In this document: positions 1,407-47,788 of the stretch, in pieces
How positions within the stretch are numbered: position 1 is the stretch's first letter
How the letters are laid out: every line of letters starts with the position of its first letter
Assembly: GCA_038249055.1 (NCBI GenBank)
Contig: JBBRWS010000008.1
Coordinates: forward strand, 1 to 58,853
Reading direction: 5' to 3'
Length of the DNA: 58,853 nt
Origin: Minisyncoccia bacterium
GTDB lineage: Bacteria; Patescibacteriota; Minisyncoccia; Phycocordibacterales; UBA9973
The notes under the pieces: generated by a model
Told to the model about the DNA's origin: nothing
Databases searched by the model: none
What the model saw: the letters and a program-made list of their open reading frames with translations, nothing else
Translations under genes and position numbers: made by a program

Positions 1407-1691
1407 CAAAAGTGAAAAAAGAAGCAACGAGTAAGTTGCTTCTTTTTTTGATTCCCACTTTTGGCCCCGTGAGGGAATCGAAAAACGGAGGCTGTCGAGC
1501 TGAGTCGGGGTCGCGAGATTTTTCAGTAGAAAAATACTTGTGACCGATGAACCCAAACTGCTTTGCTTGCGTGAGGGAATCGAAAAGCTTTTCGTTCTCC
1601 GATACTCATTGGAGCGAAAAGTACCTGAACATGCGAATGAGTACATTCGCCTACTGGGTCGTGTTCGATAAGCGTACTTGCGGTCCCTCAC
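1407..1691 (+). mobile_element. tRNA-Lys-associated antisense/scaffold element (two scaffolds in tandem)
   Basis: Antisense to tRNA 3' end at 1464-1482 and 1573-1584; scaffold B 1483-1544; scaffold A 1585-1683; direct repeat TCCCTCAC 1684-1691. Confidence 0.75.
1634..1658 (-). repeat. 25-bp GTAG-type REP-like unit, copy 1
   Basis: Plus strand CGAATG-AGTA-CATTCG-CCTACTGGG. Confidence 0.85.
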
Positions 1692-22104: not shown

Positions 22105-22276
22105 TTGGGAACAGGGACCGCGAGTACGCCTTTCGGCTACCACGTAGCCAGGTACTTTTCGCTCTGGCTAATGCCAGAGAACGAAAAGTCTTTCGAATCC
22201 CTGACGCGACTGAAGCAGTTCAGTCGCTTTCCCAAGCAAATAAAAATAGCCCTTTAACAAGGGTTATTTTTATTTG
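22105..22276 (-). mobile_element. tRNA-Gln-associated antisense/scaffold element (cleanest copy)
   Basis: Hairpin, antisense acceptor, 25-nt hairpin (22204-22228), antisense T-arm (22192-22203), 74-nt scaffold A, 13-nt direct repeat of tRNA 3' end (22105-22117). Confidence 0.8.
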
Positions 22277-33560: not shown

Positions 33561-35792
33561 ATGAAACTTTTAATTGTTGAGTCCCCTTCAAAAGCAAAGA
33601 CAATAGAAAAATATTTAGACGGCGCATACACTGTGCGTGCTTCTGTTGGGCACATAAGAGATTTACCAAAATCAAATAAAGAGGCAATAGACATACCTGG
33701 TGGTTTTATACCTCGTTATGAAATATCAAAAGGTAAAGAAAAAGTAGTTTCTGAATTAAAATCTCTTTCTGAAAAAGCAACAGAAATAATGCTCGCAACT
33801 GACCCGGACCGTGAAGGAGAAGCTATCTCATGGCATTTAAAAGAATTACTTGATGAAGATAAAAAAGTTAAAGCTCCTATTAAAAGAGTAACTTTTTATG
33901 AAATTACAAAAGAAGCTGTACAAAATGCACTTCAAAACCCTCGTGACATAGACCAAGATCTTGTAAAAGCTCAAGAAGCCCGTCGTGTACTTGACCGTCT
34001 TGTAGGATATGATTTATCTGGAATCATTTGGAAAAAAGTACGATACGGCCTTTCTGCAGGAAGAGTTCAATCCCCCGCTCTTCGTATAATAATGGAACGC
34101 GAAAGAGAAATTCGTGCTTTTATTCCTGAACAATATTGGACACTAGAAGGAACTTGGGAAACAAATAAAAATAATAAAATAACTCTATCTTGTGTAGAGG
34201 AACCTAGAGATGAAAAAGTTGTAACTCAAATTCTTAAACTAGGCAATAAAGAAAAATGGTTTGTAAAAGATTTAAAAACAAGTGAACAAAAGAGGCAACC
34301 TCGTGCTCCCTTTACAACTTCCACTCTTCAGCAGACTGCTAGTACTAGACTTGGATTTTCTCCTTCACGTACTATGCAAGTGGCCCAGAAACTTTATGAA
34401 CAAGGTTTTATTACATATATGCGTACAGATAGTACAAATTTAAGTTTAGTTGCTCAAAATCAAATACTTGCCCTCGTAGAAAAAAAATATGGTAAGGAGT
34501 ATGTAGAAGCTCATGTATATAAAGCCAAATCTAAAAATGCACAGGAGGCACACGAAGCTATTCGTCCTACTCATATAGAACAAATAAATGCAGGTGCAAA
34601 TGAAGAACAAAATAAACTTTATAAATTAATTTGGGAAAGAGTTGTTTCTTCTCAAATGTCTGACGCAAAATTATTAAAAACAAAAATTACTGCAAATATT
34701 AAAGAGGATGCAATTCCTGATTTTACTGCCAATGGTTCACGTGTATTATTTCCTGGATGGCTTCTATGTGAGACGGGAGCACGGGGTGAAGATGTTGAAC
34801 TTCCAGAAGTAATAGTAGGTGAAGAATTAAAACTTATAGAACTAAACAGCACAGAGAAAGCGACTGAACCTCCTAATCGTTATACTGAAGCGGGATTAGT
34901 TAAAGAACTTGAAGCACGTGACATCGGACGCCCTTCTACATATGCATCTATCATGAAAACTATTGAAGATAGAGGCTACGTGAGAAAAGAAGGACGTACT
35001 TTATTCCCTACTGATACTGGAGATGTGGTATCATCTTTTCTTGAAAATAATTTTGGAGAATATATAAGTGATACTTTCACCGCAGAAATGGAAGACAAAT
35101 TAGATGATATTTCAAATGGCAAAAGAGATTATGTAAAAACTTTAAGTGATTTTTATATTCCATTTCAAAAAGACGTTAAAGAAAAAGATAAACTTGCAAA
35201 AGCAACAAACATGGGTGAGGCTCCACTTGATATATTATGTCCAAAATGCGGAGGAAGTATGATTGTTAAACTTTCACGTGGAGGAAAATTTTATTCTTGT
35301 TCTAATTATCCAGATTGTGACGGTGCAAAAACTATTGAAGGAGTTGAACTTGAAGGTCCAAAAGAAACTGGTGAAATGTGTCCTACTTGTGGAGAAAAGA
35401 AAGGAAAATCAGGTGGTGGAAAACTTGTGATTCGTGTTAGACGTGACGGTACAGGTACTTTTATTTCTTGCTCTCGCTATCCTAAATGTAAATTTATAAA
35501 ACAAGACGAAGAAGAAATGAAAAGAAAGATGACAGATATTACCTGTCCTACGTGTCAAAAAGGCAAAATGATGGAACGCAAAGGAAGATTTGGAATATTT
35601 TATTCATGTAGTAACTACCCAGACTGTAAAAATGCTATCAAAGCAAAACCAACTGGAAATATTTGTCCTATGTGTGACTCACTTATGATGGAAGGCACAA
35701 AAACTATTCCTGAACGTTGTTCAAATAAAATGTGTAAGAATCATAATCCGCACAAACTTGGAGAAAACATAAAGAACAATAAAAACATTTAG
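33561..35792 (+). CDS. topA: DNA topoisomerase I with C-terminal zinc ribbons
   Basis: IVESPSKAK, ATDPDREGE, SAGRVQS, ITYMRTD, IGRPSTYA, repeated CPxC ribbons. Confidence 0.98.
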   Translation: MKLLIVESPSKAKTIEKYLDGAYTVRASVGHIRDLPKSNKEAIDIPGGFIPRYEISKGKEKVVSELKSLSEKATEIMLATDPDREGEAISWHLKELLDEDKKVKAPIKRVTFYEITKEAVQNALQNPRDIDQDLVKAQEARRVLDRLVGYDLSGIIWKKVRYGLSAGRVQSPALRIIMEREREIRAFIPEQYWTLEGTWETNKNNKITLSCVEEPRDEKVVTQILKLGNKEKWFVKDLKTSEQKRQPRAPFTTSTLQQTASTRLGFSPSRTMQVAQKLYEQGFITYMRTDSTNLSLVAQNQILALVEKKYGKEYVEAHVYKAKSKNAQEAHEAIRPTHIEQINAGANEEQNKLYKLIWERVVSSQMSDAKLLKTKITANIKEDAIPDFTANGSRVLFPGWLLCETGARGEDVELPEVIVGEELKLIELNSTEKATEPPNRYTEAGLVKELEARDIGRPSTYASIMKTIEDRGYVRKEGRTLFPTDTGDVVSSFLENNFGEYISDTFTAEMEDKLDDISNGKRDYVKTLSDFYIPFQKDVKEKDKLAKATNMGEAPLDILCPKCGGSMIVKLSRGGKFYSCSNYPDCDGAKTIEGVELEGPKETGEMCPTCGEKKGKSGGGKLVIRVRRDGTGTFISCSRYPKCKFIKQDEEEMKRKMTDITCPTCQKGKMMERKGRFGIFYSCSNYPDCKNAIKAKPTGNICPMCDSLMMEGTKTIPERCSNKMCKNHNPHKLGENIKNNKNI

Positions 35793-35903
35793 CCTTCGCT
35801 AAATGTTTTAGTTTTTGTGAGACGGAGCGATGTTTTGCGAGCACGCAAAACCGCGAGTCAAGGTTATTAGTTTTTCGAGTGGCGACGAGAAAAAACTTGT
35901 AAC
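35784..35903 (+). mobile_element. topA-associated antisense/scaffold element (scaffold B)
   Basis: 25-nt hairpin 35784-35808; antisense TAGTTTTTGTG 35809-35819; AGACGGAG...GAGTC..GGT...CTTGTAAC related to 1483-1544. Confidence 0.7.
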
Positions 35904-35992
35904 CAAAAACTATTCCCGAAAGATGCAGCAACAAGATGTGTAAAAACCATAATCCGCACAAGCTTGGGGAAAATATAAAAAGTAATAAATAA
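35904..35992 (+). pseudogene. synonymously recoded duplicate of the last ~28 codons of topA
   Basis: Encodes KTIPERCSNKMCKNHNPHKLGENIKSNK* versus topA ...ENIKNNKNI*. Confidence 0.9.
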
Positions 35993-36013
35993 ATTTTTTC
36001 AAAGGTACAACTT

Positions 36014-36038
36014 TGATTGAGTACAATCACCTACTGGG
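36014..36038 (-). repeat. 25-bp GTAG-type REP-like unit, copy 3
   Basis: Plus strand TGATTG-AGTA-CAATCA-CCTACTGGG. Confidence 0.85.
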
Positions 36039-36142
36039 CCGAAGCCGGCTAGCCAGTGAGGTCAATTTGCTAATTGAAGGTTGGACCTCTAAAACATTTA
36101 CCTGTCGTTTCCAAAAAAATACCAATACGTTATAATAAAGAA

Positions 36143-38761: not shown

Positions 38762-38844
38762 GCGTCGGTGGTAGAGCGGTCAATTACAACAGACTGTAAA
38801 TCTGTCGCCTTCGGGCTACGTAGGTTCAAATCCTACCCGACGCA
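38762..38844 (+). tRNA. tRNA-Tyr(GTA), no encoded CCA
   Basis: Acceptor GCGTCGG/CCGACGC, loop CTGTAAA, long variable arm, T-loop TTCAAAT. Confidence 0.95.
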
Positions 38845-39180
38845 CAAATAAGAAAAACGGCTTCAAGGCCGTTTTTCTTATTTGTGCGTCGGAGCAAGCC
38901 AACTGCTTGGCTTGCGTGTAGGATTTGAAAAGCTTTTCGTTACAAATTTTGATTTATCAAAATTTGTCGAAAAGGTGTACAGAATCTGTAAGATTCAAAA
39001 AGGCTACTGCCGGTCCTACCCAACACATGTTGTCGCTGAGTCGCCCAGTAGGTCATTTTACTAAATGAGGGTCGCGAGATTTTTCAGCAGAAAAATACTT
39101 GTGACCAAAAAATGTACTCATGGTCCTACCCCCCCAAAAAAAGTTTTAGTCGAGTTCCAAAAGCATATTCACGGTCCTAC
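38845..39180 (+). mobile_element. tRNA-Tyr-associated antisense/scaffold element with three right-end remnants
   Basis: Antisense 38885-38892 and 38918-38929 split by a 25-nt hairpin; TCCTAC(CC) repeats at 39014, 39124, 39175; scaffold-B hairpin 39069-39106. Confidence 0.8.
39044..39068 (+). repeat. 25-bp GTAG-type REP-like unit, copy 4 (opposite orientation)
   Basis: CCCAGTAGG-TCATTT-TACT-AAATGA. Confidence 0.85.
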
Positions 39181-47440: not shown

Positions 47441-47596
47441 CAAATACAAAAAATCCCTTTGCTTTTGCAAAAGGATTTTTTGTATTTGTGCCCAGAGCAA
47501 GCCATTGGTACGGCTTGCGTGAGAGGACTTGAAAAGGTTGAATATATGGTTTAGAAATTAATATTTCTAAACCATATGAAACCTGTACCGACTCTG

Positions 47597-47621
47597 CGAA
47601 TGAGTGCATTCGCCTACTGGG
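47597..47621 (-). repeat. 25-bp GTAG-type REP-like unit, copy 5
   Basis: Plus strand CGAATG-AGTG-CATTCG-CCTACTGGG. Confidence 0.85.
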
Positions 47622-47679
47622 TAAGAGTCAAGACATGTACTCATGGTCCTCTCCTGGGCTTAATTGATGCTCAAAAGCG

Positions 47680-47704
47680 CGAATGAGTACATTCGCCTAC
47701 TGGG
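47680..47704 (-). repeat. 25-bp GTAG-type REP-like unit, copy 6
   Basis: Plus strand CGAATG-AGTA-CATTCG-CCTACTGGG, identical to copy 1. Confidence 0.85.
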
Positions 47705-47788
47705 TACTCGCAACCCCTCCTTCTTCTTGACACAATATACAATTAAAAGTAATCTAAATAAAAATCATCTACATTTAAAATGTAAAAA

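Follow-up and report, generated by a model that had tools for sequence, protein, structure and literature searches.

A duplicated, recoded topA 3' end in a Minisyncoccia genome suggests a guide-directed kind of mobile or intron-like element not described before

Why should a bacterial topoisomerase gene end twice? In the stretch of 58,853 nucleotides analysed here (the window, which is contig C8 of genome G000, a metagenome-assembled Minisyncoccia draft of 975 kb in 18 contigs with 31% G+C), the 3' end of topA is present in two versions that encode nearly the same residues with different codons, and between them lie a hairpin, a short word antisense to topA and a structured segment that we call scaffold B. 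Inserts of the same kind stand behind most tRNA genes of this bacterium, and taken together they suggest a mobile or intron-like element of a new sort that is directed by a guide. Our preferred reading, to which we give a probability of roughly 0.5, is that the insert is a guide-directed, protein-less insertion module, the removal of which would restore the gene with its second tail.

The topA open reading frame (ORF; 33,561–35,792, forward strand, 743 aa; DNA topoisomerase I) carries the Pfam domains Toprim and Topoisom_bac and three zinc ribbons, and it ends in the first, translated tail, X1 (35,698–35,792 with the stop codon; translation ending ..TKTIPERCSNKMCKNHNPHKLGENIKNNKNI*), which we count as the left part of the insert. 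The stop codon of X1 lies inside a terminator-like hairpin (35,782–35,809; 12 bp, loop CTTC) that is predicted on both strands, and the T-rich tail of this hairpin continues into the antisense guide, TAGTTTTTGTG (35,809–35,819). The 11-nt guide is the exact reverse complement of the target word CACAAAAACTA at 35,696–35,706, which spans the left junction CA|CAAAAACTA; it thus covers 2 nt upstream and 9 nt downstream of the junction and matches the gene at 11 of 11 positions. Directly 3' of the guide comes scaffold B (35,820–35,903, 84 nt), and behind it the displaced second tail, X2 (35,904–35,992), which has its own stop codon (..KTIPERCSNKMCKNHNPHKLGENIKSNK*) and a coding-type divergence. X2 is in frame with topA once the 206-nt insert without protein, 35,698–35,903, is taken out. 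As it stands, an in-frame TAA just before X2 lies in the scaffold end, and because the scaffold end holds such an in-frame TAA or TGA, read-through into X2 is excluded. Read codon by codon, the two tails share 27 of 28 residues, with one N/S change, and 12 of their codons differ synonymously (including CGT/AGA and TCA/AGC). The tail repeat and its identity, the antisense word and the scaffold all lie where the original prediction had placed them; the hairpin between the tails is present too, but it measures 28 nt rather than the 25 nt given there. In an RNA fold of 35,690–35,925 the antisense word pairs with the gene across X1 (35,809–35,819 with 35,696–35,706) and the scaffold helices form; the predicted energy is −62.7 kcal/mol (z = −4.64), and none of 200 shuffled sequences was as stable.

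A locus of this kind might have been produced by an assembly or strain-mixing artefact that fused two topA alleles. The draft was assembled from a metagenome into 18 contigs, and one contig of the probable source run joins 35,710 directly to 35,902 at depth 5 (vs 76), skipping 191 nt, where a precise loss of the module would be 206 nt. However, a 358-nt Logan contig from the same run covers 35,685–36,042, and with it both tails, at depth 76 and with zero differences. Diverged versions appear in two other studies, whose runs yield contigs spanning 35,714/35,730–35,943 with 19 and 14 differences, and nine further genus members, as well as three named records of the Paceibacteria type, have the same arrangement at the same topA codon. 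The strain-mixing artefact, which the original prediction had itself raised, is therefore rejected, and we regard its probability as negligible.

Scaffold B is a real structured element. In the consensus fold of 11 copies, a helix P1 (GAC/GUC) is built around a GGA/GA internal loop and the hairpin P2, and a 2-nt linker leads to P3, a long hairpin that draws the base at which the target resumes into its last pair; at topA this base is C35904, the first of X2. Compensated changes occur at 12 of 21 pairs in a MAFFT alignment of the 11 copies. Across 59 matches (56 distinct), 96.0% of the cells were paired, as against 76.3% in shuffles, and double changes were seen at 19 of the 21 pairs; the observed values were reached in none of 500 shuffles, and sliding one partner by 1–3 columns lowered the pairing to 36–46%. 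The 59-match alignment was fitted to the covariance model and so favours the structure, but the independent MAFFT alignment of 11 copies gives the same pairs. G·U pairs are frequent (48 at one pair), and since they would be A·C on the other strand, the strand that folds is the sense strand of the target gene.

The covariance model built from these 11 copies matches the topA copy at 35,820–35,904 with 89.2 bits (E 1.3e-19) and a sister copy behind tRNA-Lys(CTT) with 60.9 bits (E 1.1e-12), so that the likeness first noticed between the two loci holds. The sister copy (1,464–1,545, forward strand) consists of a 19-nt word antisense to tRNA positions 54–72 (1,464–1,482) and scaffold B (1,483–1,545); the target then resumes at C56 (CGAT) and is interrupted by a second module of another kind, the A type (about 1,549–1,688). 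The motif pattern of the original prediction matches only these two sites and nothing in 100 shuffles. In Rfam 15, only tRNAs and a 16S fragment passed the gathering score and neither scaffold A nor scaffold B had a family; at E values up to 1 only hairpin-type chance matches were added, with no Intron_gpI or group-II match in the window.

How is the scaffold tied to its target? It had been proposed that the antisense word and the junction stand in one fixed register, shared by topA and tRNA-Lys, with the third base from the end of the guide opposite the C at which the target resumes. We tested this register in 77 distinct copies by pairing the bases 5' of the scaffold with those 3' of it. At offset 0 a mean of 5.56 of 8 Watson–Crick pairs was formed and 24 copies reached at least 7 of 8, whereas offsets of −2, −1, +1 and +2 gave means of 2.38–2.65 and no copy at 7 of 8; with permuted partners the mean was 3.63 (maximum 3.99 in 200 permutations). 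The fixed register was thus borne out.

The guide is also specific for topA, as had been claimed. In 13 elements at the topA site it matches the gene at 9–11 of 11 positions, perfectly in six, and changes matched on both sides were found at four positions (CA to GA in G002, A to C in L166, and the third bases of ACT/ACC/ACA). Its match to X2 is equal or worse, down to 5–6 of 9. Because the guide matches the gene as well as or better than X2, it follows the functional gene sequence. The same scaffold carries guides that vary with the target, namely T-loops, tRNA trailers, topA and efp. Guides against T-loops are complementary from T54 onward, with the junction at T55|C56, and guides against trailers are complementary to the last two tRNA bases and the trailer, with the junction after the discriminator. 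As an observation apart, where the target reads ..CGAG.., the guide has GA opposite GA, so that tandem G·A mismatches take the place of the Watson–Crick complement; these recur in six copies from different genomes (L084, L086, L093, L016:45, L022:1346 and L083).

Such modules are found far beyond topA. The scaffold B model has 563 matches in 90 of the 93 genomes of the genus (0–22 per genome), and matches also occur in 5 of 150 other genomes sampled across the phylum, where the layout is the same: a tRNA gene that encodes its CCA is followed by a spacer, a short guide and the scaffold, behind which the tRNA is repeated perfectly from C56 to CCA. Among 58 scaffold B copies inspected, 43 lie behind a co-oriented tRNA, seven at topA and one at efp. 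In the genome collection 120 loci contain a 15-mer of the scaffold; when 30 of them were put to the model, 24 had titles of the Patescibacteria type or "uncultured bacterium" and 23 of these were true copies, whereas none of the six from other phyla was. The scaffold-bearing named records bear the titles Candidatus Nomurabacteria, Paceibacterota, Adlerbacteria, Minisyncoccia, the Patescibacteria group and uncultured Saccharibacteria. In IMG/VR, 18 loci share the 15-mer and none is a true copy by the model, a weak search that used one exact word. Within G000, 28 of 42 tRNA genes have an antisense copy (9–21 nt) of their own 3' end no more than 700 nt downstream; most of these copies terminate at the complement of T54, and further downstream, behind most of the 28 genes, the tRNA sequence is repeated in sense orientation, starting at position 56 or 60 and running to the end of the tRNA. 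The modules are stacked, nested and at times tandemly identical (three units of 139 nt in G001; two units each at tRNA-Leu(GAG) and tRNA-Lys(TTT) in G000), and by a rough estimate (about 50 modules of about 200 nt) they make up ~1% of G000.

A second protein-gene target was found in G259, where a scaffold B module lies in the last codons of efp (L083; G259:C3, oriented 1450–1600) and the efp tail, ..VEKA*, is repeated in recoded form after the scaffold. The junction base is T here, not C; the guide has an A at the matching place and P3 closes with a G·U pair. With topA and efp as targets, the latter in another family, a purely tRNA-processing role is excluded, which strengthens an argument that had been made from topA. 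One locus departs from the 3'-end layout: at G000 C3:14700–15300 (L035), a duplicated 5' part of tRNA-Glu(TTC) and a scaffold B copy precede an intact tRNA.

What could such a module do? In the reading that we prefer, it would belong to a family of very small modules of Patescibacteria (Paceibacteria type) that encode no protein, insert in one orientation and lodge at the 3' ends of genes, mainly tRNA genes, with protein genes (topA, efp) as rarer targets. Each module would supply X1, a replacement target 3' end with a stop codon or terminator, so that the target gene stays intact, together with the hairpin, an antisense word of 8–21 nt that pairs across the junction and the covarying scaffold, while the original 3' end would remain behind the scaffold as X2. 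The antisense word and the scaffold would form a guide module, an RNA (or single-stranded DNA) fold of the sense strand, that sets, at constant register, the point of joining and later of removal; for scaffold B this point would lie 2 nt into the guide, before the C that also closes P3. The catalyst would come from outside the module and may be some host factor or the RNA itself. We infer that pairing guides the joining and that DNA is recombined in it, not RNA spliced. A bolder form of the idea, protein-free programmable joining, in which an RNA of ~60–110 nt with one guide of 8–21 nt inserts and removes itself at the 3' ends of essential genes, is doubtful in our estimation. It might proceed at the DNA level with a universal host factor, or at the RNA level as a new minimal splicing ribozyme; the spare gene end would preserve host function, and regular removal of the module would keep X2 under coding selection.

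The divergence of the tails bears on these possibilities. G000, G063 and G025 form a clade with 99/99 support and all three carry the insert. Their identities are 85% for topA upstream, 78–94% for X1, 73–86% for the scaffold and 79–87% for X2, and since all segments are about equally diverged, the insertion seems older than the three species. The X1 3' end and the hairpin are homologous among G000, G025, G063 and G004. Within the clade, X2 differs by 10–13 synonymous and 0–1 non-synonymous changes per pair, with a binomial P for neutrality of 1e-7 to 1e-10 (83% of sites non-synonymous; a simple model ignoring saturation). Because the divergence is of the coding type, X2 is exposed to selection as a topA tail, and judged by their substitutions both tails evolve as coding sequence. 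Even where the first X2 codons are altered (G033, L166, L185), joining to GGCA still gives T-K-T-I-P. The proposal that both tails are functional topA ends agrees with this synonymous-only signature; that they came from different genomes is not established for the window, as the insert seems to predate the species of the G000 clade. Three routes could possibly expose X2 to selection, namely frequent removal of the 206 nt from the DNA, removal at the RNA level, and re-import from empty alleles. A diversity-generating retroelement was considered as well and rejected, as the differences between the tails are not adenine-specific.

The second of these routes leads to the main alternative, or complement, to insertion of DNA: an intron-like or 3'-exon-replacing RNA that yields a TopA or a tRNA ending in X2. 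On read-through transcripts both junctions would be held in place, the 5' one (NN|C) by the guide at the scaffold's foot and the 3' one by P3; the segment from X1 to the scaffold would then be removed, or X2 trans-spliced onto the RNA of the gene, with X1 as the backup when splicing does not occur. Mobility of the DNA would be compatible with this. The coding-type evolution of X2 behind an insert seemingly older than the species is what such an RNA would produce, as is the persistence of T-K-T-I-P across the junction GGCA|C; all copies are co-oriented with the target gene and fold on the sense strand, the order of guide, scaffold and target 3' copy from the junction resembles an internal guide sequence followed by a 3' exon, as in group I introns and engineered trans-splicing ribozymes, and the A-type modules have a G last before the junction. 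However, no ribozyme or intron family of Rfam matches, even at the relaxed E value, some scaffold variants have just about 50 nt, and the junction nucleotides break the rules of both group I and group II introns. A terminator-like hairpin stands ahead of the guide, neither RtcB nor a splicing endonuclease was found in G000, X2 is frameshifted or decayed in 3 of the 13 topA-site elements (L166, L139 and L185), and splicing alone would leave the origin of the DNA copies unexplained. No RNA run was listed as containing the stretch, and splicing has indirect support, through the coding constraint on X2. We therefore consider splicing an unlikely, if serious, explanation of the locus.

The history of the topA site in the genus was read from occupied and empty loci. 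Of the 91 genus genomes with a match to the topA tail, 10 have the insert, and in all 24 of the other genomes that were read no scaffold follows the topA stop codon; empty junctions between topA and the RelA/SpoT gene, which comes next after topA, thus exist, a point on which the original prediction had asked for a check. In a maximum-likelihood topA tree (600 nt, 31 genomes; left out were G079 and G083, and also G095, G086 and G100, in all three of which no tail motif was found), the seven occupied rows require at least five gains or losses, and well-supported branches make three of these unavoidable. G083 has an X1 of a foreign type (..SKSCPNHNPHKINK*, similar to the tails of other genera) and an X2 of the genus type, which indicates that X1 can travel with the module. 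X1 and X2 are nearly identical in G094 and G100, in G100 with the terminator included, and in G025 their first 62 nt are identical. A recombinase-bearing island at the same topA position, which had also been suggested, was not found there. Two smaller observations belong to this site. Insertions of about 35–75 nt lie inside or after the displaced topA tail in L006 (G033) and L185 and make a third partial tail, once more in topA codons, and at the "empty" site of L109 (G081) the word TTTTTGTGAGA stands right after the topA stop codon. This word equals the end of a guide and the first scaffold bases, and it is possibly the footprint of a lost module.

Several results weigh against a guide-directed insertion module. 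The left junction regenerates the insertion point, so that the guide alone cannot tell occupied from empty sites; this fits tandem arrays, not a homing-type drive. Moreover, a module that moved to another tRNA species would break that tRNA if it took the old X1 along, so that retargeting by simple transfer is left unexplained. In some cases at least, the new target itself must then be the source of both the duplication and the guide, and the near-identical X1 and X2 of G094 and G100 fit such an origin. At topA itself a terminator-like hairpin separates the guide from the gene, no promoter for a guide RNA was identified at this site, and the insert of the G000 clade looks old and vertically inherited rather than recently mobile. 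None of about 80 inspected copies contains an ORF, and among the candidate families searched in G000 and the genus no partner enzyme was found. IS110 would be a poor partner, as its PF01548 domain is present in 3 of 93 genus genomes vs scaffold B in 90 of 93, and the same is true of TnpB, whose TNB domain is present in 6 of 93. Reverse transcriptases (RTs) occur in 47 of 93, and the number of scaffold copies is unrelated to their presence (means 6.3 vs 5.8, P 0.66).

The enzymes that are present can be described briefly. G000 has a single tyrosine recombinase, of the Xer type, along with three large serine recombinases, and a weak Y1/RAYT-like gene lies at C12:13527–14183. As a dedicated partner the tyrosine recombinase was set aside, being a single-copy Xer, and so was the Y1/RAYT-like protein, which in the phylum sample is present in 1 of 5 scaffold-positive and 42 of 145 scaffold-negative genomes. 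G000 has no match to the DEDD domain of IS110 (PF01548), TNB of TnpB (PF07282), Nop (PF01798) or L7Ae (PF01248), and neither an RT (RVT_1) nor a tRNA splicing endonuclease (EndA) nor RtcB was detected in it. The RTs of the genus are small (339–357 aa) and group-II-intron-like, score below the equivalog cut-off and have no intron (L242, L243 and L244, from G102, G111 and G004); they sit near tRNA-Leu(GAG), outside the modules. GIY-YIG matches number five in G000, and stand-alone GIY-YIG ORFs of 82 and 127 aa adjoin module-bearing tRNA genes (C11:10934–11146 and C2:81796–82002).

Integrase-driven integration into tRNA genes characteristically duplicates the 3' end of the gene and supplies a replacement copy, and the modules could thus be leftovers of islands or phages, similar to cis-mobilizable elements (CIMEs), that brought X1 and later suffered internal deletions; scaffold B would then be a conserved island end beside attR, perhaps encoding a regulatory small RNA. 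G000 does contain such an island, 18 kb long, at tRNA-His (C10:18087–36550, with a 444-aa large serine recombinase), and stacking at tRNA genes is typical of integrase sites. The island's end, however, has neither scaffold A nor scaffold B, and none of the roughly 80 inspected copies holds cargo or an integrase between X1 and guide. An att site needs no target-matched antisense word 85 nt from the crossover, yet this word covaries with each target; the covariation of the scaffold is of the RNA type, including G·U pairs, the same tiny layout occurs in distant families of the phylum, and none of the 18 IMG/VR loci sharing the 15-mer is a true copy. An origin as island remnants accordingly seems quite improbable to us. 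The displaced tRNA-His end and two older small modules lie 18 kb off, across the island; as an autonomous parent of the modules the island was rejected, as it lacks either scaffold at its end and is a classical island upstream of the older modules. A non-exhaustive search (inspected copies, the tRNA-His island and the IMG/VR 15-mer) found no integrase-bearing full-length parent with the same ends.

The A-type modules, which we described by reading sequences and not with a covariance model, raise another possibility. In these, the acceptor 3' strand of the tRNA, the trailer and the terminator form a long palindrome with an anti-acceptor word, followed by a covarying hairpin (loop CTGC), an anti-T-arm word and the scaffold. 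The end of this scaffold is a 3-bp mini-hairpin with the loop TACT/TAAT (stems GCG/CGC, ATG/CAT, GTG/CAC and GGC/GCC); it finishes in GG, and the tRNA then resumes at T60. A third scaffold type has about 50 nt, and here the target resumes at C56. The anti-acceptor word, hairpin and anti-T word of the A type mimic a tRNA 5' half and with X2 would form an acceptor/T-arm minihelix, a shape recognised by RNase P, RNase Z and the CCA enzyme. The modules might therefore be host-serving 3'-end RNAs that assist in the processing, folding, stability or regulation of the tRNA or mRNA upstream, with the repeats as by-products, and their presence behind 28 of 42 tRNA genes and conservation across the genus would agree with this. 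On the other hand, the presence of a module varies between species at one locus while the gene is retained, copies are tandem and nested, the targets are unrelated (tRNAs, topA, efp), 14 of 42 tRNA genes have no module and scaffold B is missing from 145 of the 150 other phylum genomes. In addition, pairing with the tRNA 3' half would compete with folding of the tRNA. A host service of this kind is in our view highly improbable.

Is the module a known element in disguise? A full-text literature search, judged by listings and abstract starts, returned no description of modules of this kind. The module fails the defining features of every known family tested, and we rate it as a new kind whose mechanism we infer. 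By analogy it would work like the bridge RNA of IS110, the guide or exon-binding sequences of introns and the guide system of IS608, and it looks like the att duplication of integrases.

Elements of the IS110/IS1111 group have at one end a structured non-coding RNA (bridge RNA or seekRNA) with programmable words complementary to the target. As is proposed for our module, RNA words complementary to the target set the joining point at a fixed register. Unlike these elements, the module has one 5' guide word and two hairpin domains, whereas IS110 has target and donor loops, two and bispecific; it has a long replacement target 3' end, a total length of 140–230 nt, no ORF and an unrelated scaffold, and the DEDD recombinase is missing from G000 and present in 3 of 93 genomes of the genus. 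Bridge RNAs and seekRNAs of IS110/IS1111 are mentioned in PMC12045711, and ISPpu9 is known to have stand-alone copies of its RNA.

Group I and group II introns, including class C introns behind terminator hairpins and engineered trans-splicing ribozymes, resemble the module in that an antisense word pairs with exon sequence across the junction, as the guide does here. The module is also co-oriented with the host gene, lies just after a terminator-like hairpin and has in X2 a counterpart of a 3' exon under coding constraint. In contrast to introns, its scaffold has 50–110 nt vs 200 nt or more, the junction nucleotides differ and no core (P3–P9 or domains I–VI) was detected, the scaffold being three helices in 62–120 nt. 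The "intron" would moreover hold a complete spare 3' exon with a stop codon, and the RT is unlinked.

Integrase islands, prophages and CIMEs share with the module the replacement 3' end, the original end displaced as a direct repeat, the stacking at a gene and the sublocations, T-loop and 3' end; a direct repeat of the target 3' end does flank the module (the topA tails X1 and X2, and tRNA 3' ends), as is expected of a CIME. They differ in that the module has about 0.2 kb and no integrase or cargo in the inspected copies, and in that it bears both a word antisense to the junction and an RNA scaffold that covaries.

In IS200/IS605 elements, too, a word directly 5' of a hairpin foot pairs with the target, and the scaffold abuts the target at the right end. 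The guide of the module, however, has 8–21 nt vs the tetranucleotides of TnpA guides, the target tail is duplicated, and the modules have neither TnpA nor TnpB (TNB in 6 of 93 genus genomes and none in G000). What sets the modules apart both from these elements and from repetitive extragenic palindrome (REP)/RAYT systems is that, among the 5 scaffold-positive genomes in the phylum sample, just 1 has a Y1-like gene. Integrative mobile elements exploiting Xer (IMEX) of the CTX-phi type and integron attC sites are likewise small and have no recombinase of their own, and sense and antisense copies in the module could fold, in single-stranded DNA, into a mimic of the target duplex. The targets of the module vary, though, and are not dif or attI, an 11-bp stem is too short for an Xer site, and nothing links the single Xer of G000 to the modules. 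As for TIGR-Tas and box C/D-like guides, Nop and L7Ae have no match in G000, and the layout of the modules is unlike the one given in PMC12045711, with its 36-nt dual-spacer arrays.

If guide and scaffold do set the joining point, no smaller unit of guide-directed insertion or splicing would be known than this module. It would need no element-encoded protein, would have been retargeted naturally to dozens of sites (most tRNA genes, topA and efp), would represent a new branch of RNA-guided mobile elements or of ribozymes and would account for about 1% of these reduced genomes. Even in a conservative reading the family matters for annotation, as it creates pseudo-tails of tRNAs and proteins and the long palindromes behind most tRNA genes in Paceibacteria genomes. 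The module system is directly testable, since a fragment of 300 nt suits a cleavage, ligation or recombination assay.

Elsewhere in the window, A-type and related modules lie at 1,549–1,688 behind tRNA-Lys, at 22,105–22,275 (reverse strand) behind tRNA-Gln, at 38,846–39,175 behind tRNA-Tyr and at 47,442–47,720 behind tRNA-Leu. The stack behind tRNA-Tyr (38,762–38,845) includes a partial or variant scaffold B at 39,047–39,106 (forward strand, 36.3 bits) with a REP-like hairpin insertion. This REP-like unit consists of a hairpin of the form xATTxAGTAxAATx and then CCTACTGGG, which equals GTAG plus the hairpin on the other strand. It was found at 36,003–36,095 in the window and at about 38 other places in G000, often as inverted pairs, and one copy lies directly after X2; further copies lie inside scaffolds A and B (e.g., at 39,052 in the window and at tRNA-Thr on contig C6 of G000).

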